Positions 32,399 through 51,226 are shown, counted from the stretch's first letter. The stretch is DNA of 64,000 nt from Nitrospirales bacterium (GCA_965223295.1 CBDCWC010000002.1:1088001-1152000); one strand, 5' to 3'. The notes: generated from the sequence alone by a model not told the origin. Numbers and translations are program-made.

Positions 32399-32552
32399 AT
32401 CACCTCAGATCGGACTACCTGACTATTCCCTTATCTAGTGCGAAATACAGGAAGAACATGAGACATTACTTTTCGCTAGCCTCTCATTCAAATGTAGCCT
32501 GGACAGCTCGCATTGAAACTCACGGTCCTTTCACAATAAACAAATAAAAGGG

Positions 32553-33614
32553 TTACGCCTGTTGCAAGTATTTCGGCAGTACTTTGAACTTATCCCGAAT
32601 AGTCGACAAATCTCGAAATTGAATGGAATCTTGTGAGACGCATTGCGTATAGGAATCATATAAAGCAGAAATATATTCATAGACCGGAATCAATAAATTG
32701 CGTATTTCCTCTAACTTTGCTTTCCGTTTCTGAATCTTCTCGTGAGCATCCCCTGCGAGAAGATCGGAAAGAATGGCTTGCGCACGATGAACATACGTGT
32801 GCTTGTCTAACACTCTTTTTTGTCCAGCCAGAGCAATCGCCTCTCTTTCCTGATCATGGCTTGCGTAATAGTTCGCAAGTTCAATCACCTGATCTACATT
32901 CCCCTTTTCATAGAGAACGCAATGAACCCTATCCTGAAATAACTCTTGTAACCCGTTACCCACATGCTCCATCAATAAAAGACTGCCACAAGCCATTGCC
33001 TCAAATGTGCGAAAATTCACATCATTTCCAGCACATTGGTTTAAGACCATTTTCGATTTCGTAAAAATGGAGACAAATTCTCCGCTGGCCACATGCAGGG
33101 GATACCGCGCTTGGATGTCTGAAATGAACGCCCGACGATCTGGATTGAACGGTGAATCCAGTTTCCCCACAAAGCTCAAATCATAACGTTTAGGAAAACG
33201 GTGTTCTATCTGGACAAAAGGGAACGTACAGAGCGGAAGCCACTTGACGCTTTGCCTTTCTGAATCACGTTGGTACATGGGTACATAATCTCGCTGCGCC
33301 ACAAAGATGCAGTCAAAGATTGCGGCATAGGCCCGATGCCAACCGTGGTGAATGTGAGAATCTATGGCATACCACCCAAGGGGTAACTCGACTTCTTCTA
33401 GACCACAGAACATGGCGTAGGTGCTATCATCCGTTAACAACAGACAATCTGGGTTCCAACCTAAAGGGAGTTGCTGCAGGACAGACTGAATCGAAGTAGG
33501 AAACTCCTGAATCTCAACATCCCCAGTCCCATCGGTGGTACAAGTCACGACAGAATGACCCAATTCCTTAAACCCTGAGTCTAAGACCAAAGCACCCAGC
33601 AACAAAATATTCAT
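32553..33614 (-). CDS. CgeB-family glycosyltransferase
   Basis: YAIDSH, WLPL, SFVG, VLNQ...DVNFRTFEAMACG and HTYVHRA motifs. Confidence 0.8.
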   Translation of the reverse strand: MNILLLGALVLDSGFKELGHSVVTCTTDGTGDVEIQEFPTSIQSVLQQLPLGWNPDCLLLTDDSTYAMFCGLEEVELPLGWYAIDSHIHHGWHRAYAAIFDCIFVAQRDYVPMYQRDSERQSVKWLPLCTFPFVQIEHRFPKRYDLSFVGKLDSPFNPDRRAFISDIQARYPLHVASGEFVSIFTKSKMVLNQCAGNDVNFRTFEAMACGSLLLMEHVGNGLQELFQDRVHCVLYEKGNVDQVIELANYYASHDQEREAIALAGQKRVLDKHTYVHRAQAILSDLLAGDAHEKIQKRKAKLEEIRNLLIPVYEYISALYDSYTQCVSQDSIQFRDLSTIRDKFKVLPKYLQQA

Positions 33615-33659
33615 GAGGTTCTCACTTCACCTAATAGAAAATCCAAGAATCACCTCTTC

Positions 33660-34925
33660 TTAAACTTGTGTGCTCATATTTGAACTGGAGAGCCCCAACA
33701 CTTTCATGGGGGAATTCCAATCTCTCACCGTCTCATCTGCGAGCTGCCGCCAAACACGTTCACGGCCTTCACTCGAACGAACCGGATTGTCTCTTTCAGA
33801 ATAAAACACACCAAGATGATCCCGATGACTGTTCCACAAACTCCACCCTTCAGTAATCGTTCGACAATTTCCCTCTGCAAGCAACTCCACACTTCCCTTT
33901 ATTGGCCAATGTTTTGGCTCAATTCCTGAAGTATCTTCTTTGATCTCACCTGACGCTTTTTGATGTCGTTCGGCTTGCCATACCCAATGTCCTTTTCCAT
34001 AAGGACCGGTTTCATGAACGCGCGCACGAGAAAAATACCAACCGATGGCCTGGGCCCCACACATCACGCCAAGATGCAATGGGCCAGTATCTGATCCCAC
34101 CACCCATTGACAGTGATTCAAGAGAGAGACAAGTTGTGGCAGATTTGTCCGACCACAACAATTAAGCACCTGATTCCTCATGTGATCAGGAAGGTTCTGC
34201 TCTAGAACCAAAGATGCCTCACGTTCTCCAGATCCCCCAATTAAGAGCAGCCGACAATTCGGCAGACGTTCCGTAGAAGATCGAATCAACTCTTCCCATA
34301 CAGAAAGAGGAACCCTGCGATCGGCATCTCCAGCTCCAAGCACAATTCCTACTTGTACAACAGAGACATCCTTCACGACACATTCAAGATCCCGAGGCAA
34401 CACTGCCCCTCTGGCATCAAGTATCGGGATACCATCTGGCGGCATTACCCCACATATCCCACAAAACGCATCGGCTAAATGAATGCGGTTGTCCCCACGC
34501 TTATGAGCCACTTGCCGTAGATACGCCACCCATGGGGGAAGACTCGGGTGTAACGGCCCCTTCTCCCCTGCTCCAATCACTTGTCCGCCTAACAGATGAG
34601 ACGCCAAAATACTTCGAGTATGATTATTCAAATTATAGGCCACAGAATAATCAGGGTAGGCGCAATCGTCTAGGTACTCGAAAGCAGCCTGAATGGGTAG
34701 TTTCCCTGCTGAACTGGGCATGGAACTCAACCTATGCCACAACTCCCCTTTCCAGGAGTAAACCCTCTGAATATCAAGAAAAAGTTTCCCTAACGGAACC
34801 AACGGTTCCGCACACAAGAGATCTATTGCTTGATGTGGGTAATGAGTATGAAGAGACGAAATAACCGGTATGGACTGGATGAGATCACCCAGTCGCGCGA
34901 GTTGAATGAGAAGAGTTCGAGACAT
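33660..34925 (-). CDS. GT9 family glycosyltransferase
   Basis: QLARLGDLIQ, GRTNL.QL, SDTGPLHL and ETGPYG motifs. Confidence 0.85.
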   Translation of the reverse strand: MSRTLLIQLARLGDLIQSIPVISSLHTHYPHQAIDLLCAEPLVPLGKLFLDIQRVYSWKGELWHRLSSMPSSAGKLPIQAAFEYLDDCAYPDYSVAYNLNNHTRSILASHLLGGQVIGAGEKGPLHPSLPPWVAYLRQVAHKRGDNRIHLADAFCGICGVMPPDGIPILDARGAVLPRDLECVVKDVSVVQVGIVLGAGDADRRVPLSVWEELIRSSTERLPNCRLLLIGGSGEREASLVLEQNLPDHMRNQVLNCCGRTNLPQLVSLLNHCQWVVGSDTGPLHLGVMCGAQAIGWYFSRARVHETGPYGKGHWVWQAERHQKASGEIKEDTSGIEPKHWPIKGSVELLAEGNCRTITEGWSLWNSHRDHLGVFYSERDNPVRSSEGRERVWRQLADETVRDWNSPMKVLGLSSSNMSTQV

Positions 34926-34955
34926 CGACTATTATGACTCGGCAATATTTGCCTC

Positions 34956-37436
34956 CTAAAGCGCAGACATTGTTTGCTCTTGGAGCTGGCCATTGTTCAG
35001 AAAATTCGCTAGATCTTCCAATCCTTCGTAGTCCGGTTTGAGAAGTTGAAACCATGAAAGCTGTTCCCTAGCTTTATCGAGATGACCAGCACGAATCGCC
35101 ACTCCAGCCAACGCAAATCGCATATCATAATCAGCCGGATTCCGCTCAATAAATCTAGTCAAATGTTGTGCTAAGGCAGTCCATCGCTGCAACGCCGTCC
35201 CTGCCTGAATCAAACAATCCATGGCTTTAACATCATCTGGATCCACGGAGGCCACTTGTTCAAATCTGTTCCATGCTTCAGCAGTCTCACCAAGTCCCAT
35301 ACAAGCCATTCCCAAACCAATACACGCTTTCATATTCCCCGCATCACAATCCAAAGCCTGCTCAAAAGCATCCTTTGCATCGGAATTTTTCTGCATTTGC
35401 ATAGAAAGAATCCCCTGCAATACCCAACCTTCAGTTCCTAGAGAAAAATACTGTTTCAATCTGCCAAGATGATTTTGAGCCTCGCCAAAATTCCCATTCT
35501 TCATTTCTGCACGTGCTAATCCTAATCTTGCAGTCGGATGATCACCAACAGTAAGCAATTTCTCCCAGCATTGGATGGCCTCCTCCTCACAATGCAACAC
35601 ATCACAGGCTTCTCCCAGCCACACAAGAATTCCAATGTTAGATGTCCAGGCCTCGATATCACGCAATAACTTTCGAATATTTTTGTCATTAGTCATTTCT
35701 GCCAGTGGCAGGCGTTGCTGCCGAAATAACAACTGCTGTAATTCCACAACTTGTTGCCAAGAGCCAAGATCAGCTACATCAGTTTTTGAAATCATCCTCA
35801 TCTTGAGTTGCTCACCCTTAAAGTAGTATTGAATGATAAGTCCATTCTGATCTGCGATAATATCCTCATCAACCAACCATTGATGCTTCCAGCGAGTTTC
35901 CAAACGCAGCGCATTAGAATCATCATGTTTTTTTCTTCCAGGAGATTGGCTTTCTAGATGATAAAGACAGCTCTCAGGTTGATACACAACTTTCTTTCCT
36001 ATTTGACGCACTTTCAAACATAAATCAACGTCTTCAAAACCATTCACAAAACCTTCGTCGAAGCCCCCAATTTTCTCAAAGACGTCCTTTCGTACCAACA
36101 TACATGCAGCCGTCACGGATTGAAATTCTCTCCGAATATTCACCACAGACCAATTCTCTGGAACCCCCCTAAAGATGTGATACGGAAGCTGCGAAAATCT
36201 CGAAAACGCCACTCCAGCATGCTGGATAGTATCATCAGGATACAATAGCTTACTTCCGACCACTGCGACCTCTTTATGGGAGTCCACCTCGTCTACTAGT
36301 GATGCCAACCACCCAGGTCTTGGAATCGTGTCATTATTCAAAAACACAATATACTTCCCTTTGGCGGCCGCAGCCCCTTGATTGCAAGCTTTCGCAAAAC
36401 CAAAGTTTTCAGGGTTAGTGATGACCTGGATATCTCCGCTTAAAGAAGACAGAAAATCAGCCGTCTCATCCGAGGAGTCATTATCTACGACAATCACCTC
36501 ATAGTTCACACGTTCCGTTACCCGTGCCAATTCGATAAGGCATTGCTTAGTTAAGTCAGCTTTATTAAAAACAGGAATGATGATGGAGACCAGAAACGAC
36601 CATCTACAGCGCGCCGCTTCGTGACTCACCTCATCCTGCATTCCCCGCTGCTTAGGGTTCATGCCTTTACTTGTTACATTTGATTTCAGTGATTTCGTCG
36701 CAGGTAATGAAGCAGCATCTGAATTAGAAGACTCGAGAAAGGAAGGACACTTCTCCAATGCATTGACCCTCGATTCAAGCGCCGTGGCCGATTGAATGTT
36801 TCTCCTAACATTATCGATCAAGCTTGGCATGTGAATAACTTCCTGGATCTTTTGAGCTAAATCCTCGATACTCCCTGCTTTAAAAAGCCATCCATTTTTC
36901 CCATCATTGACCAATTCAGAATTTCCCTCAATTGAAGATGCAATAACTGGCACGCCCTCATGGATAACTTCTTGAATGAGGTGAGCGTCATGTTCTTCTC
37001 GCGATGGAATCACAACTATGTGAGTTCTTGAAAGAATTTCGGCAAAACGACTCTTCGAATATTCACCATAAAAAACAACATTCCTTCCTTTTTTGACCCT
37101 TTGCATCGTCTTCCCGAAATAGTTGGGTTCTACCACGGAACCATAGATTCTAAACTCTGCATTCCGAATATCAACATGGTCTAATGCATCAATAAGAAGA
37201 TCCAAACCATCCTTATAAGCGGCAGTACTTAGATACGAAAATACCAGAGGGTTTTGAGACAGTTCTGAAGCTTCACATGAGTTAGGTAAACTGACACCCT
37301 TCTGGGAATGACTGTTTTTGGTTGGGTCTGTAATCTCTGCCCTAGGAACCACCCTCTGATTCGCAGCATCCAATTGATGCTCATTGGCCCCCTCACGCCA
37401 ATCACTATTTAGTCGGCGAACGATGTCTTCTCCCAT
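34956..37436 (-). CDS. Multidomain glycosyltransferase: partial GT4 domain + GT2 + TPR repeats
   Basis: GVPVIAS..G..ELV.DG.NG (GT4 C-half). SIIIPVFN, VVDN.S.D, FLNND, VTAACML and GFEDVD (GT2). C-terminal TPR-like helices. Confidence 0.85.
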   Translation of the reverse strand: MGEDIVRRLNSDWREGANEHQLDAANQRVVPRAEITDPTKNSHSQKGVSLPNSCEASELSQNPLVFSYLSTAAYKDGLDLLIDALDHVDIRNAEFRIYGSVVEPNYFGKTMQRVKKGRNVVFYGEYSKSRFAEILSRTHIVVIPSREEHDAHLIQEVIHEGVPVIASSIEGNSELVNDGKNGWLFKAGSIEDLAQKIQEVIHMPSLIDNVRRNIQSATALESRVNALEKCPSFLESSNSDAASLPATKSLKSNVTSKGMNPKQRGMQDEVSHEAARCRWSFLVSIIIPVFNKADLTKQCLIELARVTERVNYEVIVVDNDSSDETADFLSSLSGDIQVITNPENFGFAKACNQGAAAAKGKYIVFLNNDTIPRPGWLASLVDEVDSHKEVAVVGSKLLYPDDTIQHAGVAFSRFSQLPYHIFRGVPENWSVVNIRREFQSVTAACMLVRKDVFEKIGGFDEGFVNGFEDVDLCLKVRQIGKKVVYQPESCLYHLESQSPGRKKHDDSNALRLETRWKHQWLVDEDIIADQNGLIIQYYFKGEQLKMRMISKTDVADLGSWQQVVELQQLLFRQQRLPLAEMTNDKNIRKLLRDIEAWTSNIGILVWLGEACDVLHCEEEAIQCWEKLLTVGDHPTARLGLARAEMKNGNFGEAQNHLGRLKQYFSLGTEGWVLQGILSMQMQKNSDAKDAFEQALDCDAGNMKACIGLGMACMGLGETAEAWNRFEQVASVDPDDVKAMDCLIQAGTALQRWTALAQHLTRFIERNPADYDMRFALAGVAIRAGHLDKAREQLSWFQLLKPDYEGLEDLANFLNNGQLQEQTMSAL

Positions 37437-37600
37437 AGAATGCCCTTTCGAGAAGCCCTCTTAATAATGGAAAAACTTCGTATTTCTCACAAACTAATGC
37501 TGTGCCTTTTTTTGTCAGAAGGTCTGCAGATTGTCTCTCAAATCCCCTTTCGACTATCCGCCGAAAGTCGTTCGTCATAGATTCCTTCATGCAATGCCTG

Positions 37601-37616
37601 AGCAACCTTTATGCCA
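37601..37616 (-). promoter_or_regulatory. sigma54 promoter of the leftward glycosyltransferase operon
   Basis: Minus strand TGGCATAAAGGTTGCT = TGGCA-N6-TTGC with exact GG-N10-GC spacing. Confidence 0.7.
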
Positions 37617-37758
37617 GTAGTAAACATCGGAACCTCACCGAATTCTCCTCCTCCCTCAGACTCATATCCTACCCATCAATGTACGCATGACGAATTCGAG
37701 AAGGCACAAACTCTCTATCTTCATAAAATCTACACCTATAACGTATTGCAAACATTGA

Positions 37759-37770
37759 TCAAAATTTTGA
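37759..37770. promoter_or_regulatory. TCAA-N4-TTGA palindrome between divergent sigma54 promoters
   Basis: TCAAAATTTTGA is a perfect palindrome and a variant of the GTCAA-N4-TTGAC motif. Confidence 0.4.
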
Positions 37771-37799
37771 AACTTGAGTTACGAGAGCTGAACAGTCGG

Positions 37800-37815
37800 T
37801 GGTACGGTGTTTGCT
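37800..37815 (+). promoter_or_regulatory. sigma54 promoter of the rightward operon
   Basis: TGGTACGGTGTTTGCT, GG-N10-GC. Confidence 0.7.
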
Positions 37816-38008
37816 TAGTAAGATGGAATTCCCAATTCCTCTGCAAATGAAATCCTCCAAATTGGGAGATTCAGAGGGTTAAAATTACCCTTTGCCAACA
37901 AACATCTAGAACTATTTTTCCGCTTTTGATGAAGAGACGAAAGAGATTTGAAGGAGGCGTTGCCTAGGTCATCCTTGAGGTAAGGCCTCTCGACTATCTG
38001 AAGAAAGA

Positions 38009-40279
38009 ATGGCTCGGAAGGACAGAATGGATAAGTACATAATCTACCAATCGGACACCGCGAATGCTCCTGATGAATTGGAATTTTGCCAGAAATATGT
38101 CGAGCTGAATCGAGGTGAAATCGTTCAAATATACCACGATGATCAGTACCTCACTCAATTAAAGCGGTTAATCAGGGAGATCAATGAAAACACCTTAGGG
38201 CGGGTTCACGATTTTTTGTCTTATTCTCGAATGAGGATACCGACTGAACAAGATATTCAGCACATCCTTCATTCCCTGTTTCTCAGTAAGAATATGCATA
38301 TTACGTATTTGCAACAGAATTTGTCCTCGAGAAACTCTTCTGGACAGTTGGCCTTCTTGTCAGAGTATTACGGCAAACTCTACGATCAAGGGCATCTTAA
38401 TTATTTCGAATTTGTCGGATCTGTTTCCCAACAGGCTACAAAAATTTATAATACCGTTACCAAAAATAAGTATTGTGAATGCAGCATTTGTGGATGGAAA
38501 GGAATGCGCTTCAATCCAGCATATTATAAAGATGGGTTTGTGGAAAATATTATCTGCGTAAACTGTGATAGTTGGGGAAGACACCGGCGCGCGTGGGGAT
38601 TGTTACATGATGGAGGGTATTTAAAAGAGAACATGAAGATACTCGATACAGCCCCCATGAAAATGCTTTCGCAAAAGATTCAACAATGTCATGTGCATTA
38701 CACATCCATCGATATCGAGATCGACAGGAGTCCAACCATCCAAGGAGATCTGACAAAGATTCCCTTCAAAGAAAACTCTTTCGACCTAGTCCTTTCCATG
38801 CAGGTACTCGAACATATCATGGATGATAAAACGGCGCTGCGAAACCTCATTGCCGTAACAAAAGACACCGGCACACTCATTATTTCCGTACCATTTAAAA
38901 AAACTCCAGGAAGCGTCACCCGCGAATACGGCGCGCCCAATTGGGAAGAGTTTGGTCACGTGAGAGAGTATGGAATGGATGTCGTAGAAAGATTTCAAAA
39001 CGAAGGCCTTCATATCGAAGAATTTGTATGGGGTCAAGATAAGAACAAATTAGCATTACTTCAGTTGGGAATAGACCCTACAGAAAAAGAGGTATTCTTT
39101 ATTTGCAAAAAACTTTCATCAGGCAAAGCAATACATGAAGGGCCTCGCAAAACAACATTCCCAGCATACAGCAATCAACACGTCACTGAAAGTCATCACC
39201 TGACATATGCAGGACAGAATGGCGACTTCAGCTCAAGTGCGCACAAACCTCAAAAAATTTTTACGGTCATTATCCCTACTTACAATAGAATAGAAACTCT
39301 TCAAAAAACACTGCGCGCCTACAACAACCAGACTGTTTCCCCAGATGTCTTTGAAGTTCTAATTATTGATGATGGATCCACAGATCGCACGCAGGAGGTT
39401 ATAAGTCGATTAAGAAATGAATTGCATTACACTCTGCATTACCACCACCAAACCAACCAAGGTCCAGGGAAGGCAAGAAACTGGGGTATTAAAAACACAA
39501 CGACCGAGTATATCTTTCTCACGGGAGATGACATCATTCCAGATCAGAATATGATTTGGGAACATTGCAAAAGCCATATATCTGATCCAAGAGAAGATTT
39601 GGCCGTCCTGGGTCATATTGACTGGCCACCGGAGATGCCCATGAATCCTCTGATGTATTTTCTAACAAAATATACAGGAATGCAGTTTGGGTTCAATCAA
39701 ATCCAAGATCCGGAGAACGCAGGCTTTGAGTTTTTTTATACTTCCAATATTTCTCTGAAAACCAGCTTCTTAAAACAGAACGAATTATTCAACCCGAAAT
39801 TTGTACATGCCGCTTATGAAGACATCGAACTCGGTTATCGGTTGCAAAACCAGGGTATGAAAATAAAATACAATAAACGTGCATTAGGGAACCATGATCA
39901 CGCTATGACCTTTGATTCTGTTTGCCGACGACAACACAAATGCGGACAAATGGCAGTCGTGCTCTGTCAATTGCACCCTGAATTGCAAGTGATCGTTGGA
40001 AACATTGATTTAACTTATAACGAAACACAGCATCGCCAGCTTTCGCAACAAATAGAAGAATTAGGCGTTAAGTTAAACACCACAGACATCAAAGAACTCA
40101 TGCAGCAAGAACAGTCCAGTTTTTCAGATGCACATAAGAAAAATCTATATGAAATCTTTTCATTTGCATTTGCACTGCACTTTCGTTTAGGCACACAAGA
40201 TTATCTACAAAAAACTTTATACTCCAGCCAAAAAGTAGGTCAAAGCTATGACTGCCCCCCCAAACATCTTGGCGACTAG
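38009..40279 (+). CDS. SAM-dependent methyltransferase + GT2 glycosyltransferase fusion
   Basis: CxxC..CxxC..RHR, then DL..IPF..NSFDLV....VLEH..DD and HVR.YG (methyltransferase). TVIIPTYNR, IDDGSTD, GDD, FYTSN.S and YED.ELGYRL (GT2). Confidence 0.85.
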   Translation: MARKDRMDKYIIYQSDTANAPDELEFCQKYVELNRGEIVQIYHDDQYLTQLKRLIREINENTLGRVHDFLSYSRMRIPTEQDIQHILHSLFLSKNMHITYLQQNLSSRNSSGQLAFLSEYYGKLYDQGHLNYFEFVGSVSQQATKIYNTVTKNKYCECSICGWKGMRFNPAYYKDGFVENIICVNCDSWGRHRRAWGLLHDGGYLKENMKILDTAPMKMLSQKIQQCHVHYTSIDIEIDRSPTIQGDLTKIPFKENSFDLVLSMQVLEHIMDDKTALRNLIAVTKDTGTLIISVPFKKTPGSVTREYGAPNWEEFGHVREYGMDVVERFQNEGLHIEEFVWGQDKNKLALLQLGIDPTEKEVFFICKKLSSGKAIHEGPRKTTFPAYSNQHVTESHHLTYAGQNGDFSSSAHKPQKIFTVIIPTYNRIETLQKTLRAYNNQTVSPDVFEVLIIDDGSTDRTQEVISRLRNELHYTLHYHHQTNQGPGKARNWGIKNTTTEYIFLTGDDIIPDQNMIWEHCKSHISDPREDLAVLGHIDWPPEMPMNPLMYFLTKYTGMQFGFNQIQDPENAGFEFFYTSNISLKTSFLKQNELFNPKFVHAAYEDIELGYRLQNQGMKIKYNKRALGNHDHAMTFDSVCRRQHKCGQMAVVLCQLHPELQVIVGNIDLTYNETQHRQLSQQIEELGVKLNTTDIKELMQQEQSSFSDAHKKNLYEIFSFAFALHFRLGTQDYLQKTLYSSQKVGQSYDCPPKHLGD

Positions 40280-40389: not shown

Positions 40390-41532
40390 TTGGCAAACGA
40401 CACGACCTTTTACATTTCTACGAAGATGAGCATACTCACGACGGTAATAGTCAACAGAATTTCTGAAACTATCTTCGCCAACCTGAAAGTTGTCCTAAGA
40501 AACTATCCAGGCGAATGTTTCAAAATCCTGACGACATTTCCAGGCACTGCCACATTCCTCAATCAACAGGGTTACTCCTGCGAAGTAATTCAATTGCACC
40601 GTCATCAAGACAGGATTGAATCCATGAATAGATTGGGGTTGATCGCAAGTGGAGATATGTTTCGAGACTTCAAAGTCCCAGGCTCAGAATTACTGGCGTG
40701 GAAACCTCTTATGCACGACCGTTTTTGGCAATTTACGGACTTTGAAACATTTGATGCAATCCACAAATTGGTAGATTTATTAAATACCCGAATACTGATT
40801 ACTCCCATCGATATTCATGACCCTCTAAGTCAATACATGACGAGACAAGCCAACAAGAAAGGTGTCTCCACCATTGGGTATCAAACAACACAATTGAGAA
40901 CAAAAGAAAACCTCGATGCCTATTTAGCCTTTAACGAATATTGGGTATCTACCCAACAGGACAAAGTCTTTCTGTCCATTCACAAAGGTATCCTCGAAGA
41001 GCACATTCATCTCCTCCCCCATTACTATTTCCAGCCTGCGAGGGAATACGCGAAATCCTCGCGTCATATCGAGAGAAAAACTATCAAGGAACAATTGGGA
41101 TTGCCTATAGATAAAAAAATACTCCTTATTCTCTTCTCAATTAGGCACATCTGGGAATCCCGCAAACTATTCGCACACCTTCAAAAACTCAAAGACTCTT
41201 CACAGCAAGACAGTGCTCAATTCAAAATTCTCATTTTTCTTGAGACACAAAAAGACACCGATGAATTTCCAGCTCTGTTTAAAAAAGAGATCCAATCTCT
41301 CGAACTTGAAACGTTATCCCCTGCAGCAAATCTCTTTGAGTATGCAAGAGCTGCGGATACTTTCTTTGCCTTCCGATTTCTAGAGTACCTCGATGAAGTT
41401 GCTCTGCTTGCGGGTCAAACAGTGATCTATGACCCCTATTATTTCAATCGAAATCATTTATTGATTAGTGACTCCCCGTCTATCTCGTTGGATAATTCCA
41501 AACATTCTCCTGATTACTTTGCTGTAGCCTAA
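40390..41532 (+). CDS. Hypothetical protein, probable GT-B-fold polysaccharide/glycan biosynthesis protein
   Basis: 380-aa ORF in an AT-rich GT operon. A.KKGV.TIGYQ and K..LGLP.DKKIL.I.F patterns resemble the downstream ORF. Confidence 0.55.
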   Translation: MANDTTFYISTKMSILTTVIVNRISETIFANLKVVLRNYPGECFKILTTFPGTATFLNQQGYSCEVIQLHRHQDRIESMNRLGLIASGDMFRDFKVPGSELLAWKPLMHDRFWQFTDFETFDAIHKLVDLLNTRILITPIDIHDPLSQYMTRQANKKGVSTIGYQTTQLRTKENLDAYLAFNEYWVSTQQDKVFLSIHKGILEEHIHLLPHYYFQPAREYAKSSRHIERKTIKEQLGLPIDKKILLILFSIRHIWESRKLFAHLQKLKDSSQQDSAQFKILIFLETQKDTDEFPALFKKEIQSLELETLSPAANLFEYARAADTFFAFRFLEYLDEVALLAGQTVIYDPYYFNRNHLLISDSPSISLDNSKHSPDYFAVA

Positions 41533-43620: not shown

Positions 43621-44307
43621 ATGAATCTTGCAGTCATTCCTGCGCGTGGTGGCAGCAAACGGATCCCCCAAAAAAACATCCGAGACTTCTGTGGAAAACC
43701 CATTATTGCCTATTCAATTGAAACGGCACTGACCTCAAGGTTCTTTGATCAGGTCATCGTCTCCACAGACGACGAGGAAATCGCCTCAGTTGCCAGAGAG
43801 TTTGGGGCGGAGACGCCGTTCGTACGACCAACGGAAATTGCTGGTGACTACACCAGTACAAACTCAGTGGTAAAGCATGCAATAGAATGGTATCAAAAAC
43901 GAGCACATACGTTCTCCCTGGTTTGCTGTATCTATGCAACGGCTCCTTTTCTACAAGTAAGATATTTAAAGGAAGGGCATGACAGATTAATCAGCTCGGA
44001 TAAGTCCTTCGCATTTTCCGTTACCAGCTTTCCTTTCCCCATTCAGCGCGCAATACGTATCACGCCAAAAGGAGACGTCCAAGCCTTCTGGCCAGAGCAC
44101 ATTAATAGTCGATCACAGGATTTGGAAGAGGCGTATCATGATGCAGGTCAGTTCTACTGGGGTCGTCCCAGTGCGTTTCTAAATGACCAAGCGACCTTTT
44201 CCAATCTTTCTATCCCCATCGTGCTACCTCGATATTTGGTACAGGATATAGACTCTATTGAAGACTGGCAGTGCGCAGAACTTATGTGGAAGGCTGTCTC
44301 AAAATAA
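43621..44307 (+). CDS. pseF: Pseudaminic acid cytidylyltransferase
   Basis: AVIPARGGSKRIP.KN, VSTDD, CCIYATAPF, RSQDLEEAYHDAGQFYWG and QDID..EDW motifs. Confidence 0.9.
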   Translation: MNLAVIPARGGSKRIPQKNIRDFCGKPIIAYSIETALTSRFFDQVIVSTDDEEIASVAREFGAETPFVRPTEIAGDYTSTNSVVKHAIEWYQKRAHTFSLVCCIYATAPFLQVRYLKEGHDRLISSDKSFAFSVTSFPFPIQRAIRITPKGDVQAFWPEHINSRSQDLEEAYHDAGQFYWGRPSAFLNDQATFSNLSIPIVLPRYLVQDIDSIEDWQCAELMWKAVSK

Positions 44308-44326
44308 AGAGGATCCCATTGTCGAG

Positions 44327-44496
44327 ACCACTAATTGTTTGGAATCCCTCAATGCCCTGATGGACAAATGATGTGCCGAGACCGACCAGTTGCCAACTCT
44401 AGTCAGCCCCAACAGTAGTTGGCCTCGACGTTGCTAGACATTGAACATCGGCTACGGAAGGGAAAACGTTATGGGGATTTGTCTTCCTTAATAGCA
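44327..44496 (+). pseudogene. IS256-family transposase C-terminal remnant
   Basis: Translation across a frameshift and two stops gives TTNCLESLNALMDK*..NSSQPQQ*LASTLLDIEHRLRKGKRYGDLSSL, matching the IS256 TTN.lE and W.A.LL..E.R.R..KGY..L pattern. Confidence 0.7.
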
Positions 44497-44546
44497 AATC
44501 CCCTGACAACAGTTCCCCGTCAAGAATGGGAAACACCGCCACGGAT

Positions 44547-45245
44547 TTATCCAACCAATCGTACTAATTCGAAAGCTTCCACATATTCTCGTGAAACGAC
44601 CGTTCCCCATTTGCGACAAATTGTTTTCAAGGCCTCTAATGATCGAGGATGGGGGAATGAACGAATTTCAGTTTTATAACATTCCATAGCTTTGAGTTTG
44701 GCCTCAATATTCTGAGAAACATCAATAAAGACATTTGGCTTAAAAACTGGATTGTTCTGATAAAAACTCCATTCAGTGGCTGAAGGAGTTTCAAACGTAT
44801 ACAGCTCTTTGACTGAACTATTAGGAAGTGGGCGAGTCGCAGTTAAGACGGCCTGAAATGTGATTTTATGATCAATATTTAGATCACTGGGATGATGAGT
44901 ATACACAACATCCGGTCGAATTTCGTCTAAGACTTTTTCTACCTGCTTGACAATATTTAACAGAGGAAGTTCATCAAATCTGTTATCAGGGAAAGATTTT
45001 AGAGTAATGGATTGAGCTCCTAACACTTTTGCTGCAGTTCTTGTTGCCTCCGCAATTCGCTCTAGCTCAACTCTGTCTACTTCAGAGCGGGATTCGTATC
45101 GTGAAGTACATCCTTCGCCTAGTATTACTATATGGATGGCCGCTGATTCGCAAAACTTCGCAATCGTTCCTCCACAACCTAAAACTTCATCATCCGGATG
45201 AGCAGCGACCACGAGAATAGTTTTCATAGTGGGCCTAGCCGGCAT
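44547..45245 (-). CDS. PIG-L/LmbE family de-N-acetylase
   Basis: AAHPDDE, FPDNRFD, YTHH.SDLNIDH, ET.S.TEW and FPHPRS motifs. Confidence 0.9.
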   Translation of the reverse strand: MPARPTMKTILVVAAHPDDEVLGCGGTIAKFCESAAIHIVILGEGCTSRYESRSEVDRVELERIAEATRTAAKVLGAQSITLKSFPDNRFDELPLLNIVKQVEKVLDEIRPDVVYTHHPSDLNIDHKITFQAVLTATRPLPNSSVKELYTFETPSATEWSFYQNNPVFKPNVFIDVSQNIEAKLKAMECYKTEIRSFPHPRSLEALKTICRKWGTVVSREYVEAFELVRLVG

Positions 45246-45939
45246 GAGCCTCCTTGGTTATGGACACGTTGGCGACGACTTTTCCCTCATATCGAACTGC
45301 ACTCGAAAACTCGTATCGAAACCCTTTGTAGGAAAGATAAGCAGTCGGATATTCTTCCGCATCAAGCATTCGTATAAAGTCATAGACCTCTTTCAACGTT
45401 TCACAATGAGGAATACTACTTTCGCTTGGTTTTCTCCTTTTGAATATTGTCGGAGTTCCTTCTTGCGGGGAAGGGACAATGTTGTTGGAAATTAGTTCCT
45501 GGATCATGTCTCCCGCCATTTCAGACCCACGAATATAAATTTCTTCTGCGCACCCATCAAGCGAAAGATTTCTTTGAAGATAGACTGGCCCAGCATCAAA
45601 ATCCTCAACCATCCGGAGGGCCGTTAGCTTGGTCTGGCTATGGCCTCGAATAATCAGATTTTGCAGTGGACTGCCACCACGACCATAGGGAACATCCGTC
45701 ATATGAAAACAGACACATTCAAATTCATTGACAATTTCTCGTGGAACCTTCCATGACCAATGAAGAAAAAAAATAAAGCGCGGAGAAACTTCCCTCACTC
45801 TATCGAGAGTCAATTCTTCCTTTGAACCAATAAAAGCCCAATCGCCTGCAAACCGGCTGATAATGTCTCGAAAAATCCTATAATTCCATGACTTGGTTGC
45901 CACAACAAGGTATGGAATAACTTGATTAGTCATTTTCAA
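45235..45939 (-). CDS. Formyltransferase (Fmt-like, sugar N-formyltransferase)
   Basis: FFLHWSW, FHMTDVPYGRGGSPLQNLI, DAGPVY and IRMLDA..YP motifs. Confidence 0.85.
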   Translation of the reverse strand: MKMTNQVIPYLVVATKSWNYRIFRDIISRFAGDWAFIGSKEELTLDRVREVSPRFIFFLHWSWKVPREIVNEFECVCFHMTDVPYGRGGSPLQNLIIRGHSQTKLTALRMVEDFDAGPVYLQRNLSLDGCAEEIYIRGSEMAGDMIQELISNNIVPSPQEGTPTIFKRRKPSESSIPHCETLKEVYDFIRMLDAEEYPTAYLSYKGFRYEFSSAVRYEGKVVANVSITKEAHAG

Positions 45940-46691
45940 TCTTCCTCTTCTAAGGCGATTTTCATAAACACTTTTTTACCTTCATGAACAAAATATGCTC
46001 CTCTATAGGGTGGAAAGGTTCGGGCTCGGAGAAGATCAATGAGATACTGTGCAGAATAGTCCTGATCTAAAAATACTTCATCAATGGCGTCAACATCTCG
46101 AGTTCTATGATATGTTCCACCACCTTTTTCTTGAGGGATGCACTGTATTTCGCCATTTTTAAAGAGAGGCCACGTTTCTTTGAATAAGTCAATCGAGAAA
46201 CTTTCCAGCTTTCGATAGAGAGATTCTCCGGTATCAGATGGTTTAACAGGGACTTGTTCTTGAGAAAGAATATCACCAGTATCAATCCCCTCATTGATAT
46301 AATGTATGGTGACGCCAGAAGGGGTTCCTTCAACAATACTCCAAACATTGGGATATTGCCCTCGATTGTAAGGTAGAAATGAAGGATGCACATTAATACA
46401 TCCCGAAGGAAAGCACGAAAGAAATTCTTTTTTCAAAATATAATCAAAAAATATTGAGATCCCCAGATCTGGATGAAGGTTTCTCACAGCTGCTAGAGTC
46501 TCGGGTGTTCGCAGGGTCGTCGCATCAAATATACGATCATCACTGAGTTGCGAGCTCTTGATCATTTCCGAACGATATCGGCTACGTGCAAGAGGATGAA
46601 CAACCAAACCAACTGGCGGCTCTCCATTTTCTACCAACCAATTTAGAATAGTACTTGCTACGAGCCCATTTCCTAACACGATGTATCTCAC
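45936..46691 (-). CDS. Sugar N-formyltransferase (formyl_trans_N)
   Basis: INVHPSFLPYNRG, GVTIH.I.EGIDTGDI and LRARTFPPY motifs. GTG start overlaps the pseI stop (ORF open to 46721). Confidence 0.85.
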   Translation of the reverse strand: MRYIVLGNGLVASTILNWLVENGEPPVGLVVHPLARSRYRSEMIKSSQLSDDRIFDATTLRTPETLAAVRNLHPDLGISIFFDYILKKEFLSCFPSGCINVHPSFLPYNRGQYPNVWSIVEGTPSGVTIHYINEGIDTGDILSQEQVPVKPSDTGESLYRKLESFSIDLFKETWPLFKNGEIQCIPQEKGGGTYHRTRDVDAIDEVFLDQDYSAQYLIDLLRARTFPPYRGAYFVHEGKKVFMKIALEEED

Positions 46692-47758
46692 GGATGATCC
46701 TCGACGTTCACCAAATCCCAAGAAAAAGGCGTTCCTTTTTGAATATCATTTTTAGCTTTTTTGCCGAGAACCTGCTCAAGAAACTTAGGAGCTAACCCAT
46801 AGCCAGGCCGAATGGAACGAATATTTTCGCAAGTAATCTGTTCACCACCTTGAATATCCTGAACAACAAAGAGCGAACGTCGAAAACATAAACTCCTCTG
46901 CTCATCTGAATTAGGTTCAAACGAAATTTTGCCTAGAGCCTGTTCCACATCTCGAATTGCAGACACCATCTTAGTAAACTCGTCGGGTTCCATTGAAAAG
47001 CTTGCATCGGGCCCACCGTCAGAGCGAGATAAAATAAAATGCTTCTCAACAATATTTGCACCCAAAGTGACAGCAGCGATAGCTACATGACTGCCAAGTG
47101 AATGATCGGATAACCCAATTGGTACGTTGTATTTCTTGGAAAGATAGGGGATCGCCTTTAAATTCATTCCATCTGGAGAAGCTGGATATGCGCTTGTGCA
47201 TTTCAGCAAAGCTATCTCACGGGTTCCGGCATTTTTCAATGTCGCTACGGCTTCATCAATTTCAGATAGCGTAGACATGCCTGTCGATAAAACAACCGGC
47301 ATTTTTGTGCTCCCAATTTTTTTCAGTAGCGGTAAATCAACAATCTCAAATGAAGCCACTTTAAAGACTGGTATCTTTAAGCCACCCAGAAAGTCCACAG
47401 CCGTTTCATCAAAAGGCGTTGAAAAGAAATCCAACTCACATTCATGAGCAATAGCTTGCAGTTTGGCGTGCCATTCCCAGGGCGTATAGGCTTCAGAGTA
47501 TAATTCAAAAAGTTTCTTGCCTGACCACACACTGTCACTTGGAATTTGAAATTCTTCTCGGTCGCAGTCCAGAGTCATAGTTTCCGGCGTATAAGTTTGC
47601 AACTTTACTGCATCGGCTCCTGCCTTGCTGGCCATGCGTATTATCTCTTCCGCAGCCTCAAAACTTTGATTATGATTGGCTGAAATCTCGGCAACGACGT
47701 AACAAGGTTGTCCTTCTCCGACCAGCCGATCTCCAATCTTTATTTGCCTCTGATTCAT
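46688..47758 (-). CDS. pseI: Pseudaminic acid synthase
   Basis: AEISANHN, KLQTY, TPWEWH, KVASFE, LKCTSAYP, GLSDH, EKHF and RRSLF motifs, SAF domain. Confidence 0.92.
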   Translation of the reverse strand: MNQRQIKIGDRLVGEGQPCYVVAEISANHNQSFEAAEEIIRMASKAGADAVKLQTYTPETMTLDCDREEFQIPSDSVWSGKKLFELYSEAYTPWEWHAKLQAIAHECELDFFSTPFDETAVDFLGGLKIPVFKVASFEIVDLPLLKKIGSTKMPVVLSTGMSTLSEIDEAVATLKNAGTREIALLKCTSAYPASPDGMNLKAIPYLSKKYNVPIGLSDHSLGSHVAIAAVTLGANIVEKHFILSRSDGGPDASFSMEPDEFTKMVSAIRDVEQALGKISFEPNSDEQRSLCFRRSLFVVQDIQGGEQITCENIRSIRPGYGLAPKFLEQVLGKKAKNDIQKGTPFSWDLVNVEDHP

Positions 47759-48777
47759 GGACCTGATAGCTCCTTTATGACTTGAGCAACACGTCTTGCA
47801 CCATACCCATCTACGATCAACGGCCCAGCTTTACTCATAGCCTGCCTTTCCTTTAAGGATCTCGCCAAGCGATCTAAACTCTCTTGAAACGTCTTCATTA
47901 AATTTGTGTCGCTCACATTTCCAACCCATTTCAGAGCACCATTCCTCGAAAACCCTTGAAGATTATGTATTTGGTTTTCTGCCATCTGTATGGCAAGAGC
48001 TGGGGTTCCCGTTGCGGCTAATTCATAAGTTGTCTGCCCTCCTCCAGCAATCGCAATATCACACCCCAGCATGAGATCATAGAGATTAATGGGATCTTTA
48101 TGCACACACACGAACGAATCATCACGCCATTGATTAAGACATTCAAGGGCTTTTTCTTCTTCGACAAAAGGGCCAAGGATCAAATCAATATGCACATTTT
48201 TATAGGCTCCTCGAGTCCATTTGAGCAAATCGGAAATAAGTGGCATTGAATTCATCCCACCTATCGTAATCAGAATACGATCTATTTCATTCCGTATACG
48301 ACGGTTAACTTTCTGGCTAAATACCTCTCTCAGTAAGATGTACTGGGGACCGAGCAATAATTTCGTAGAAGGTAATGCTTGGTATCTACAGTCTCCACCA
48401 TTTACCGATCCATTAATAATCAAGTCCACTGGTAAAGAACGGTCACATAAGTCATCAATCACCACCACCTTACCCCGAAACCCCTTGCTGTCTTTCGGCT
48501 CGACAGGATACGAATCGATGACCAAGACATTGGCACGACTCTGGATACAATATTCAAGGCTCTCTCGAAGACCCCAGTCAGGATTTTCTTTTAAGAGTGT
48601 TCCAGAAAATCCATATTTCTTTAAAAATTCAATGCCACTTTGCTCTCCTCTTAAAAGGAAATGAACCTTTGCATTCATTTCCTCTAATACTTGGGCGAGC
48701 GTGAGACACCGACGCAGATGCCCCAGTCCAATCGTTGGGCCAGCGGTGGTACAAAATACAATAGGCCACTCACTCAT
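47755..48777 (-). CDS. pseG: UDP-2,4-diacylamido-2,4,6-trideoxy-altropyranose hydrolase
   Basis: IGLGH.RRC..LA, VIDSY, IDD, LLGPQY..LR..F, GG.TTYE and DGYGA.RV motifs. Confidence 0.88.
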   Translation of the reverse strand: MSEWPIVFCTTAGPTIGLGHLRRCLTLAQVLEEMNAKVHFLLRGEQSGIEFLKKYGFSGTLLKENPDWGLRESLEYCIQSRANVLVIDSYPVEPKDSKGFRGKVVVIDDLCDRSLPVDLIINGSVNGGDCRYQALPSTKLLLGPQYILLREVFSQKVNRRIRNEIDRILITIGGMNSMPLISDLLKWTRGAYKNVHIDLILGPFVEEEKALECLNQWRDDSFVCVHKDPINLYDLMLGCDIAIAGGGQTTYELAATGTPALAIQMAENQIHNLQGFSRNGALKWVGNVSDTNLMKTFQESLDRLARSLKERQAMSKAGPLIVDGYGARRVAQVIKELSGP

Positions 48778-49985
48778 TTTTTAGCGTTTGCCAGGACTTT
48801 CTTAACGGACCGAATAACCCAATCAACGTCATTTGTGGACATAGCAGGCCAAATTGGCAAGCTAATCAGTTCATCATACGCTGCCTCTGCAACTGGCCAA
48901 TCATTCTTTTGATAGCCAAGTTTTTGATAAAAAGGATGCCAGGGAATAGGGATATAATGAACATTGACTCCCAAACCACAATTTTGCAGATCCTGAAAAA
49001 TTTTTCTCCGTGTTTTTGTGAGTTGTTTCAGCTGCAACCGGATAGGAAACAAATGATAAGACGACCGGACTGTTGGCAATTCGACAGGCAACCGAATTTC
49101 GTGAACGTCTCCTAGGCTTTCTTGATAGCAACGTGCGATTTCTCGTCGACTGTCGACAAACCCCTTCAATTTGTCGAGCTGACTCAGTCCAAGTGCACAT
49201 TGAAAGTCCGTGATTCGAAAATTATGTCCTAAATCTAACATTTCATAATACCAAGGGCCGTGATCTGCTTCGCAAAAACATTCCCGTTGCCGCGTAATAC
49301 CATGGGTACGAAAACGTCTCAGTCGTTCCGCAAACTCAGCGTTATTCGTAAGAACCATCCCTCCTTCCCCAGTCGTAATATGCTTTACAGGATGAAAACT
49401 CAATACGGTCATATCAGAAAGACTTCCGATCGGCTTCCCTTTGTAAAAAGCACCGAGTGAATGAGCGGCATCTTCAATCACAATCAGGTTATGCCTCTTT
49501 GCGAGTGTTCGAATTTCATCAAGTTCACAGGGGTGCCCTGAAAAATCGACGATGATTATGGCTCTAGTCTTTTTTGTGAGTTTTTTTTCTATCTCACCAA
49601 TATTGATGGTGAGAGTATCGGGGGTCACATCTGCAAACACAGGCACGCCGCCACAGTACAACACGCAATTGGCCGTTGCAACAAATGATAAAGGGGTCGT
49701 AATCACTTCATCCCCTTCTCCAATACCTGCAGCAACACATGCAGCATGAAGTCCGGAGGAACCGTTGGCCATGGCGACTCCCTCACCTGCCTCACATTGC
49801 TGGGCAACAGCTTGCTCAAATCGTGGAATGAGCGGTCCTTGGGTAATCCAATCTGAACGCAATGCCGATATCACTGCATCAATATCAGCATCATCTATCC
49901 ACTGCCGTCCATAAGGCAGAAACGCTTTATTCCCACAGGCACTATTTACTTCTGTCAGACCTGCTCGTAAAGATTGGGGCATCAT
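48774..49985 (-). CDS. pseC: UDP-4-amino-4,6-dideoxy-N-acetyl-altrosamine transaminase
   Basis: LPYGRQ.ID..DI, SDWITQGP, EDAAH, SFHPVKHITTGEGG and VNVHYIP motifs. Confidence 0.9.
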   Translation of the reverse strand: MMPQSLRAGLTEVNSACGNKAFLPYGRQWIDDADIDAVISALRSDWITQGPLIPRFEQAVAQQCEAGEGVAMANGSSGLHAACVAAGIGEGDEVITTPLSFVATANCVLYCGGVPVFADVTPDTLTINIGEIEKKLTKKTRAIIIVDFSGHPCELDEIRTLAKRHNLIVIEDAAHSLGAFYKGKPIGSLSDMTVLSFHPVKHITTGEGGMVLTNNAEFAERLRRFRTHGITRQRECFCEADHGPWYYEMLDLGHNFRITDFQCALGLSQLDKLKGFVDSRREIARCYQESLGDVHEIRLPVELPTVRSSYHLFPIRLQLKQLTKTRRKIFQDLQNCGLGVNVHYIPIPWHPFYQKLGYQKNDWPVAEAAYDELISLPIWPAMSTNDVDWVIRSVKKVLANAKK

Positions 49986-50054
49986 TTTTTGTAGAGAACA
50001 CTCCTTAGCTTTGCAACGGGATGTCCATAGTTTAGGAGTTGTGGAGCAAATCGC

Positions 50055-51077
50055 TTAACACGCTACAGGCTCTGACGCATATAGCTCAGGGATTAATTGA
50101 TTGAGTTCCTCAGCCGAAATCCATCTGCTATTAGTATTACTGGCGTAACTGAACCCATCTGGAACTGGCTTTCCACCATTTCTCCCGTTCTCATGGTCTG
50201 TCCACCACCTATATTCAGGCTCAATGACAAAATATTCATCATATTCCCGTGTACGCGGGCCATCGTCCTCAGAAATAAGCAATTCATGCAGTTTTTCACC
50301 AGGCCGAATGCCAACATATTCATACTGACAGTCTGGTGCGATCGTCTTCGCTAAATCGATAATCTTCATACTGGGAATTTTTGGAATAAATATCTCTCCT
50401 CCTTTCATCATCCCCATACTCTGGAGAACAATATTTACACCTTGTTCCAAGGTCATCCAAAATCTTGTCATTCTTCGATCAGTAATAGGAATGACACCCG
50501 ATGACCTCAAACTTAAGAACAGTGGAACAACACTACCTCGACTCCCAATGACATTTCCGTATCGAACGATACTAAACCTAGTTTTTTTTCGTCCAGAATA
50601 GGCATTTCCGGCGACAAAGAGTTTGTCCGAGCAGAGCTTTGAAGCCCCATATAAATTTATCGGACAAGCCGCTTTGTCCGTGCTCAAAGCAACGACTTTC
50701 TGGACACCATTATCGATCGCAGCGTTCAGAACATTTTCAGCCCCCAGAACGTTTGTTTTTATGGCTTCAATGGGATTGTACTCTGCTGTCGGAACTTGCT
50801 TAAGCGCTGCGGCATGAATAACATAGTCCACGCCATCAAAGGCTCGATGTAATCTCCCGAGGTCTCGTACATCCCCAAGAAAAAAACGAAGACACATGTG
50901 ATTTTCAGCCTTGAGACTTTTAGCCATATGGTACTGTTTTTCTTCATCCCGGCTAAATACAATCAGTTTCTCAGGCCGAAATCGCTCGAGAATAATTTCT
51001 ACACATTTTTTTCCAAATGAACCCGTTCCACCGGTTATAAGAATGGATTTTCCATCTAGTGTAAACTGAGCGTCCAT
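50055..51077 (-). CDS. pseB: UDP-GlcNAc 4,6-dehydratase (inverting)
   Basis: TGGTGSFG, HAAALKQVP.AEYNP, STDKA, YGASKL, RYGNV.GSRGSV and GIRPGEKLHE motifs. Confidence 0.95.
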   Translation of the reverse strand: MDAQFTLDGKSILITGGTGSFGKKCVEIILERFRPEKLIVFSRDEEKQYHMAKSLKAENHMCLRFFLGDVRDLGRLHRAFDGVDYVIHAAALKQVPTAEYNPIEAIKTNVLGAENVLNAAIDNGVQKVVALSTDKAACPINLYGASKLCSDKLFVAGNAYSGRKKTRFSIVRYGNVIGSRGSVVPLFLSLRSSGVIPITDRRMTRFWMTLEQGVNIVLQSMGMMKGGEIFIPKIPSMKIIDLAKTIAPDCQYEYVGIRPGEKLHELLISEDDGPRTREYDEYFVIEPEYRWWTDHENGRNGGKPVPDGFSYASNTNSRWISAEELNQLIPELYASEPVAC

Positions 51078-51226
51078 GAAACCATCCTTTCCTGACTTGT
51101 ATTGGTCTAGACTAAAATTAGTAACTCTTTACCCATTCTGGGTGCCCCACAGAATCCCTTTTTCTTTCTCATGTGAGGTAATGCTTCAAACTTCGTATAT
51201 CTATTGATCATAGATGATCTACGGAT

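Follow-up and report, generated by a model that had tools for sequence, protein, structure and literature searches.

A pseudaminic acid operon of a Nitrospirales bacterium with two formyltransferase-fold proteins, a predicted de-N-acetylase and no PseH: a possible route to a 5,7-diformamido sugar

An operon for the biosynthesis of pseudaminic acid (Pse) is found in the genome of a Nitrospirales bacterium (GCA_965223295.1), within a 64,000-nucleotide stretch (CBDCWC010000002.1:1088001-1152000) that is referred to here as the window and is numbered from its first letter. Seven coupled open reading frames (ORFs), from pseB to a gene for a PIG-L-type protein, all lie on the minus strand between 44,547 and 51,077, where an initial annotation made from the sequence alone had placed them, and a further gene, pseF, is convergent with the operon and falls outside the coordinates of that annotation. 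The genes are as follows, FT1 and FT2 denoting the two formyltransferase-fold proteins.

50055..51077, minus strand: pseB, inverting uridine diphosphate (UDP)-N-acetylglucosamine (GlcNAc) 4,6-dehydratase (TIGR03589, 514 bits, cut-off 408)
48774..49985, minus strand: pseC, C4 aminotransferase (TIGR03588, 489 bits, cut-off 424)
47755..48777, minus strand: pseG, UDP-sugar hydrolase of 340 amino acids (TIGR03590, 175 bits, cut-off 154)
46688..47758, minus strand: pseI, pseudaminic acid synthase (TIGR03586, 475 bits, cut-off 340)
45936..46691, minus strand: FT1, PseJ-like sugar 4-N-formyltransferase with a GTG start (PF00551, PF18216)
45235..45939, minus strand: FT2, formyltransferase-fold protein (PF21553; 1zgh, E 8e-63)
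44547..45245, minus strand: predicted PIG-L/LmbE-family de-N-acetylase (PF02585, 98 bits)
43621..44307, plus strand: pseF, cytidine monophosphate (CMP)-pseudaminic acid synthetase (TIGR03584, 344 bits, cut-off 206)

The bit scores of PseB, PseC, PseG, PseI and PseF are all above the NCBIfam cut-offs, and we assign these proteins, by family, to a predicted CMP-pseudaminic acid pathway, the L-glycero-L-manno stereochemistry of whose product we infer from the inverting PseB and the PseI scores only. PseI is the sole member of the NeuB family found in the genome (one PF03102 match at E<=1e-30 and one blastp match). The overlapping stops and starts described earlier from pseC onward are present, with 4-bp overlaps at the pseC/pseG, pseG/pseI and pseI/FT1 junctions and an 11-bp overlap between FT2 and the PIG-L gene, while the FT1/FT2 junction depends on the start chosen for FT2, there being a 4-bp overlap with a TTG start and a 2-bp gap with the ATG at 45933. 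The spacing between pseB and pseC is 69 bp.

The initial annotation had noted the lack of a PseH acetyltransferase in the window and had named a search of the genome as the check. We found no pseH in the window or in the genome, which is 100% complete and 1.07% contaminated (labels beginning with L, G and P are those of our analysis for loci, genomes and proteins, G000 being the window's own genome). The PseH models TIGR03585 and PF13302 gave no match anywhere in G000 and PseH was likewise not found with the same model in the sister genome G301; as a positive control, this PseH model exceeds its cut-off in G305. Five proteins of G000 match the GNAT family PF00583, all of them outside glycan loci and beside tsaB-like and other unrelated genes, and no GNAT family was matched in the 340-residue PseG, which agrees with the earlier statement that it carries no GNAT fusion. 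A tblastn search of G000 with six PseH-like GNATs from related loci gave no match at E 0.1, and three PglD-like queries gave weak hexapeptide matches only, the best of them CysE-like and, from its sequence and neighbours, presumably a serine acetyltransferase-like gene. On the family searches, the reading of all five GNATs and tblastn, we rejected a hidden pseH.

FT1 would provide the missing step. Its Asn-x-His...Asp site is intact, as in Fmt and PurN of the same genome. Among PDB entries PseJ matches it best (6ci2/6ci4, E 5e-31), followed by other 4-amino-sugar formyltransferases, with approximately 55 of 130 residues identical to PseJ by hand count from the alignment. This match spans only residues 83-212 of FT1, and for its C-terminal PF18216 domain the aligned enzyme is 4nv1 of Francisella; because this domain is closer to 4nv1 than to PseJ, we call FT1 PseJ-like and do not claim strict orthology. 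FT1 and FT2 belong to different families and share 22% identity over 175 amino acids. Among 401 genomes of the phylum, four including G000 have an FT1 match at E 1e-45, the relatives being one protein of 60% identity in a pse locus (L158) and two of 36% in other sugar loci. PseJ completes the route to Pse5Ac7Fo (acetyl at N5, formyl at N7), a formyltransferase replacing PseH (PMC11040635), and the flagellar islands of Geobacillus are also without PseH, some having a formyltransferase (PMC5109656). The FT1 half of the locus, formyl for acetyl at N7, is known chemistry, and FT1 very probably moves formyl from N10-formyl-tetrahydrofolate (N10-formyl-THF) to the 4-amino group in place of PseH, so that N7 would carry a formamido group.

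To place the operon among its relatives we assembled 101 FT2 loci, comprising the window, 13 of the 16 matches from one search, 80 metagenome loci, one plasmid and six regions from genome samples, with three distant matches (<=30%) left out; at 80% identity they form 85 groups. Because the 80 metagenome loci are the best 80 of at least 588, they lean to near relatives. Among groups whose sequence extends 1.5 kb or more to either side, a PIG-L gene lies within 1.5 kb of FT2 in 46 of 46 and within 200 bp in 39 of 46, and pseI is found within 9 kb in 46 of 46; in L026 and L090, short loci that were dropped, the gene directly after FT2 is a different one. Genome samples, which are less biased, gave one new FT2 match in 300 genomes of the bacterium's own phylum, and 4 in 400, 1 in 400 and 0 in 250 in three other phyla, all six sample-derived loci being pse-type clusters with PIG-L, and a single true FT2 locus came from the plasmid and phage collections. 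Within its own phylum the arrangement is rare, but it recurs across phyla.

In 48 non-redundant groups pseG, pseI, PIG-L and FT2 are all in view, and here the N7 slot, in which PseH would be expected, holds a GNAT only in 27, FT1 only in seven, FT3 only in seven, a GNAT with FT3 in two, none of these in five, and a GNAT with FT1 in none. FT3 is a third formyltransferase-fold family (motif LVVHES, without the Asn; for example L011:9215-9862) that fills the PseH slot and may be fused to PseG or FT2; its nearest solved relative is 1ZGH and it has no characterised close relative in the PDB. The five exceptional loci have a hexapeptide acyltransferase, a divergent GNAT, a methyltransferase (two loci, one by Pfam and one by motif) and a trio of epimerase, ATP-grasp and HAD proteins. 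In this slot a GNAT and FT1 or FT3 tend to exclude each other (Fisher p 2e-6), and because the slot labels are scattered over the FT2 tree (for FT1, seven changes for seven rows) the exclusion does not reflect a single inherited event. The earlier proposal that one formyltransferase replaces PseH is supported by this comparison, since FT1 sits in the slot that is otherwise that of a GNAT and the two never occur together (0 of 48 groups); no GNAT is in view in any of the seven FT1 groups, nor in L158.

Fusions add to this picture. Of 55 longer FT2 proteins, 38 carry a GNAT, 10 an FT3 and one a PseJ-motif domain, and the others a full PIG-L (two), PseG alone (two), PseI (one) or ATP-grasp (one); three full-length proteins are FT2-PIG-L fusions, and several proteins join FT2 or PIG-L to PseG, PseI or a CMP-transferase. 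Because FT2 is fused to an N7 acylase in 49 of the 55, it appears to work beside that enzyme and not to replace it. FT2 therefore needs a second amine, which would come from N5 by way of PIG-L, the only source when N7 is formylated. Among the gene clusters shared by FT2 loci there is no recurrent acyl carrier protein, acyl-coenzyme A (CoA) ligase or other donor-making gene.

FT2 itself is a clear member of the 1ZGH/PF21553 family (E 8e-63; 44% identity in a fold search), which has at least 7,981 clusters (7,981 of 8,000 scored candidates passed E 1e-10) and most of whose members are unnamed or labelled methionyl-tRNA formyltransferase. For FT2 this label is wrong, because it scores 35 bits against a TIGR00460 cut-off of 201.5 and the genome has a separate fmt (C3:995669-996637), and we rejected a role as the housekeeping Fmt. 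We also rejected the possibility of a decayed gene, since the motifs hardly vary and the copy in the sister genome is 91% identical. The predicted model (predicted local distance difference test score 83.9) has the formyltransferase fold, and all 34 fold matches listed are annotated as formyl-folate-type enzymes (1zgh, FMT, ArnA, HypX, FDH and sugar N-formyltransferases). Neither His79 nor Asp115 varies among 218 sequences, and the GRGGSPLQN motif is nearly invariant; residues specific to the family include His60, found in 215 of the 218, together with the conserved His60-Trp61 and Met80-Thr81-Asp82. Two residues after the His there is Thr, Ala or Ser, Thr standing at the Ser position in 193 of 218. 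A His/Ser/Asp triad is used by FDH, FMT and ArnA, and His/Asp/Asp by HypX (PMC6802093); with Thr at the Ser position of this triad, activity of FT2 is therefore plausible. On balance the evidence tips towards FT2 formylating the freed N5 amine, through a His/Thr/Asp site that would work without the usual Asn.

The PIG-L protein has the metal site His16-Pro-Asp18-Asp19 plus His126, with the ligands His16, Asp18, Asp19 and His126 invariant in 15 of 15 aligned sequences, and its PDB matches are LmbE-family deacetylases. Enzymes of this family share an HXDD + H metal motif and an oxyanion His, and all those characterised act on an N-acetylglucosamine core or its conjugates (PMC4101496). Among 52 longer proteins with this PIG-L, 32 have a formyltransferase-fold domain, nine a GNAT and one FolD; 26 of the 32 formyltransferase domains lack the Asn (20 with Gly, 3 with Val, 3 of FT2 type) and six have it, many of the 20 Gly-type fusions being kin. 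The FolD fusion, P0200, joins PIG-L to an enzyme that makes the formyl donor. It is likely that the PIG-L protein hydrolyses the sole remaining N-acetyl group, which derives from GlcNAc and is the later N5 group.

Put together, PseB and PseC would convert UDP-GlcNAc to UDP-4-amino-4,6-dideoxy-L-AltNAc (AltNAc, N-acetylaltrosamine), the 4-amino nitrogen of which is the later N7, and FT1 would formylate this amine from N10-formyl-THF to give the N7 formamido group. PIG-L would free N5 and FT2 would formylate the freed amine, this exchange of acetyl for formyl probably taking place on a nucleotide-linked intermediate, at the UDP or the CMP stage. PseG would remove UDP, PseI would condense the sugar with phosphoenolpyruvate and PseF would activate it with cytidine triphosphate, such that the end product would be CMP-Pse5Fo7Fo, with a computed [M-H]- of 610.14 as against 638.17 for the di-acetyl form. 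The complete scheme, in which FT1 acts at N7, PIG-L and FT2 act at N5 and the sugar is an acetyl-free Pse5Fo7Fo, has in our estimate a probability of about 0.5. Two proposals of the initial annotation are upheld in part. Of the suggested exchange at N5, the link between FT2 and PIG-L stands, as the two travel together whatever fills the N7 slot, but the formyl group is less secure, being set against a free amine in Candidatus Kuenenia stuttgartiensis. As for an unusual diformyl product, we found no earlier report of a diformamido sugar, but the layout is not unique, since PseJ is known and two formyltransferases without a GNAT are found in 14 of the 48 groups.

Several observations weigh against this scheme. 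At the position of the catalytic Asn, two residues before the His (Cys77 in FT2) and placed by alignment to Fmt, PurN and FT1, the family has Cys in 204 of 218 sequences and Asn in four, and this Asn matters in sugar N-formyltransferases. FT3, a type that serves the N7 slot, is Asn-less too, and our literature searches found no assay of any PF21553 protein. With the catalytic Asn lost and no assay found for the family, formyl as the group that FT2 adds is something we infer. In the PIG-L protein Asn123 (15 of 15 sequences), three residues before the last metal ligand, where solved members read H-P-D-H, replaces the oxyanion-stabilising His of BshB (His110) and the teicoplanin deacetylase. PIG-L relatives of 42-47% identity occur in Bacillus and Priestia loci without any nonulosonic acid (NulO) gene, the protein is also paired with carbamoyltransferase, WbqC or ATP-grasp proteins (L158, L159, P0182), and FT1-like proteins of 36% identity sit in non-Pse sugar loci. 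Phylogenetically independent pairs point in the same direction as the exclusion in the N7 slot, but are not significant (median p 0.25, seven pairs; underpowered). The Aeromonas-type Maf catalytic domain PF01973 has no match in the genome. PseF tolerates change at N5 less than at N7, with kcat/Km 0.82 vs 4.7 for 5-hydroxybutyryl (PMC11040635), and in Kuenenia the CMP-sugar, which already bears the changes, has one free amine and one formyl group (10.64898/2026.04.20.719630). Finally, no report of a 5,7-diformamido nonulosonate or of an FT2/PIG-L cassette was found in the literature searched, which covered few subscription journals, and the available part of PMC7685785 has nothing on N5 exchange.

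The main rival explanation is that the N5 amine, once released by PIG-L, is left wholly or mostly unmodified, with FT1 and FT2 both serving N7 or FT2 being weak; the product would be a zwitterionic 5-amino-7-formamido-Pse. The Kuenenia CMP-NulO, with its one free amine and one formyl (10.64898/2026.04.20.719630), and the loss of the catalytic Asn from FT2 would both fit, but a missing N7 acylase would explain the Kuenenia product equally well. Moreover, an N7-acting FT2 would be redundant, since a separate N7 acylase accompanies it in 43 of 48 groups and 49 of the 55 longer proteins join the two. The active-site His and Asp of FT2 and its GRGGSPLQN motif are also almost invariant. We regard a free N5 amine as unlikely.

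Somewhat less probable again is that the N5 acetyl is exchanged for a group other than formyl, FT2 being a repurposed acyltransferase with another donor or a thiol carrier. Here too the lost Asn is in favour, as are the conserved, family-specific His60-Trp61 and Met80-Thr81-Asp82, the example of HypX and FDH, enzymes of the same fold whose formyl acceptor is CoA or phosphopantetheine instead of an amine (PMC6802093), and the association of the same PIG-L family elsewhere with carbamoyltransferase, WbqC or ATP-grasp (L158, L159, P0182). Against this, the gene clusters that FT2 loci have in common include no recurrent gene for making a donor, all listed structural neighbours of FT2 are of formyl-folate type, and one PIG-L is fused to FolD (P0200).

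We consider it improbable that the product is ordinary Pse5Ac7Ac or Pse5Ac7Fo, made with a divergent acetyltransferase encoded elsewhere, or with FT2 and PIG-L acting on another amino sugar of the glycan. The genome does have five GNATs without an assigned substrate and a second DegT/PglF-like pair, and its flagellar island has many glycosyltransferases, but none of the five GNATs is PseH-like or lies in a glycan locus, FT2 is always found with pseI in well-flanked loci (46 of 46), and several fusions link FT2 or PIG-L to PseG, PseI or a CMP-transferase.

The ArnA/ArnD route to aminoarabinose uses formyl as a temporary protecting group. That PIG-L removes such a formyl group here, and not the N5 acetyl, to give Pse5Ac with N7 free or re-acylated, is the least probable of these readings, since for all the altered oxyanion-site residue (Asn123) and a formyltransferase and PIG-L pair after a DegT aminotransferase in the non-NulO locus L174, FT2 and PIG-L are still present in the 27 of 48 groups in which a GNAT serves N7, and the substrates of the characterised LmbE enzymes are all N-acetylglucosamine cores or conjugates of these (PMC4101496). 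The last three readings are each less likely than either the diformyl product or the free N5 amine.

For the diformyl product we would also venture a wider proposal, tentatively and at odds a little short of even. PF21553 would be the missing N5-formyltransferase of nonulosonic acids, forming with its dedicated PIG-L a portable exchange cassette; the Gly-type, Asn-less formyltransferase would do the same job in legionaminic acid (Leg) clusters; and at the present locus the cassette, together with a PseJ-like enzyme, would give 5,7-diformamido-pseudaminic acid. On this proposal the Kuenenia sugar may be 5-formamido/7-amine. In L153, a Leg-type locus with a PglD-like acetyltransferase, a Gly-type formyltransferase adjoins PIG-L, and a Leg-type locus on a Halorussus plasmid (L171:6386-13807) has Asn-type and Gly-type formyltransferases and PIG-L, with no annotated acetyltransferase. 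L171 appears to repeat the logic of the window locus in an archaeal Leg pathway and is a cultured candidate for a diformyl legionaminic acid.

Other loci show further combinations. L158:8018-13495, from the same order, is a pse locus with FT1, a carbamoyltransferase, a hexapeptide protein and PIG-L, and no FT2, and is a candidate for an N5-carbamoyl, N7-formyl variant. In L112 (10328-11116), L085 (2289-3071), L019 and L086 an S-adenosylmethionine methyltransferase gene immediately precedes FT2, at the position of the N7 acylase, such that an N-methyl variant is possible.

The pse cluster lies between fliC-flaG-fliD-fliS and fliW-csrA-flgL-flgK, where fliC was identified by Pfam and the names of flaG, fliD, fliS, fliW, csrA, flgL and flgK are those we presume from reading the translations. 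The features on the flagellin side are as follows.

27336..28175, minus strand: fliC, the single flagellin found, 279 amino acids and a possible bearer of the glycan (PF00669, PF00700; one blastp match in the genome)
28932..40279: six glycosyltransferase genes between fliC and the pse genes (Pfam)
40390..41532, plus strand: protein without an assigned family, next to the candidate transferase and syntenic in the sister-genome locus L144
41540..42784, plus strand: candidate CMP-Pse glycosyltransferase, GT-B-like (a lead only)

The flagellin has approximately 55 residues between its conserved ends, 14 of them Ser or Thr. The six glycosyltransferases are two GT9-like proteins, two with PF13524, a GT4-GT2-TPR protein and a methyltransferase-GT2 protein; the TPR protein with GT4 and GT2 domains is at 34956-37436. 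A 605-residue protein at 30581-32398, with a weak match to the Maf N-terminal domain (PF20157, E 0.02) followed by DUF3880 and PF13524, is a candidate for the first attachment of sugar to flagellin. The ORF at 41540-42784 has no Pfam or PDB sequence match; its Atlas feature neighbours, at 0.96-0.97, are families of which part of the members carry PF04464, PF05159 or PF02350. KpsS1 is a Pse transferase (PMC11040635), and because this ORF resembles GT-B families including the KpsS type, although as a lead only, the sugar may cap a longer glycan. The position beside a single flagellin favours a predicted role in flagellar glycosylation, and the best explanation of the pse operon is that it supplies sugar to a flagellar glycosylation island. 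Most likely the neighbouring glycosyltransferases make an oligosaccharide, on flagellin or as part of another surface glycan, that the sugar caps; direct attachment by a Maf enzyme is improbable. Flagellin and LPS, the carriers named in the initial annotation, would both be candidates.

The pse cluster has a G+C content of 41-45%, compared with 47% for the genome and for the pseF stretch, and the 836 bp and 239 bp on the two sides of pseF hold no gene of 80 amino acids or more, except for one short overlapping ORF. A scan for promoters and terminators gave no more sites than were found in shuffled sequence. Upstream of pseB, at 51226-51370, there is a 145-bp dispersed repeat, resembling a miniature inverted-repeat transposable element or a repetitive extragenic palindrome, with 50 blastn matches in the genome, 39 of them of at least 120 bp and most 80-93% alike. 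The closest relative, L001, is 86% identical over the 6.6-kb run. The sister genome keeps pseB to PIG-L but has, in place of the 42770-44544 stretch that includes pseF, a seven-gene module with two methyltransferase genes, one gene each for an oxidoreductase, an aldo-keto reductase, an SpsF-like transferase and a class III aminotransferase, and one that is transposase-like. Among nine NeuB loci of the same genus the sister-genome locus is the sole one of Pse type, and a relative in the same family (L156) has a different NulO cluster at the same position. In the other eight loci of the genus (L145-L152) the NeuB is not of Pse type, and it and a CMP-transferase adjoin a class I/II aminotransferase and an NAD-dependent epimerase; several of these loci also have an AMP-binding enzyme. 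These neighbours resemble what we take to be bacterial sphingolipid genes, which would hint at nonulosonate-bearing glycolipids.

If the proposal is correct, it assigns a function to a large misannotated family, two small soluble proteins allow a test of where N5-formyl nonulosonates come from, and the acyl pattern could be predicted from gene content, with a GNAT, PseJ-like or third-type enzyme acting at N7 and PIG-L with its partner at N5. Pse with two formyl groups would be new among natural sugars and would be of use as a tool in chemoenzymatic synthesis. Because the operon has no acetyltransferase or other tailoring gene the locus is a clean test case, while the weight of the finding is limited by the N7 part being known and the cassette common.

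Compared with the canonical CMP-Pse5Ac7Ac pathway of Campylobacter jejuni and Helicobacter pylori, the locus has the same PseB, PseC, PseG, PseI and PseF and the same setting in a flagellar glycosylation island, but it is without PseH, has FT1, FT2 and PIG-L instead, and no Maf catalytic domain was found. With the PseJ route (6ci2/6ci4) it shares an Asn-x-His...Asp formyltransferase in place of PseH, to which it adds the FT2 and PIG-L cassette, and it differs in the C-terminal domain of FT1, which aligns with 4nv1. The NulO cluster of Kuenenia likewise combines a predicted deacetylase with a predicted formyltransferase, but is of Leg type, has one formyltransferase and gives a product with one free amine (10.64898/2026.04.20.719630). 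Halorubrum sp. PV6's 5-N-formyl-legionaminic acid also has formyl at N5, which requires loss of the GlcNAc acetyl, and its mass step of 302 Da, from the m/z values of the paper, fits formyl plus acetyl; here the pathway is an archaeal Leg pathway with a NeuD-like acetyltransferase and a putative formyltransferase of approximately 317 amino acids, longer than FT2 and close in length to the Gly-type proteins, and no deacetylase is named in the available part of the paper (PMC6137143). Within 1ZGH/PF21553 FT2 is a clear member, and the label methionyl-tRNA formyltransferase does not fit a family that sits in pse operons. Deacetylation followed by re-acylation is also the logic of teicoplanin. With the LmbE deacetylases (teicoplanin/A40926 deacetylase, BshB, MshB) the PIG-L protein shares the HXDD + H site (PMC4101496), but it has Asn123 for the oxyanion His and its predicted substrate is a nucleotide sugar or a nonulosonate. 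Which enzymes modify bacterial nonulosonic acids at N5 has been described as largely unknown (PMC11040635), and the present locus is a variant that joins one known part, N7 formylation, to one common cassette.

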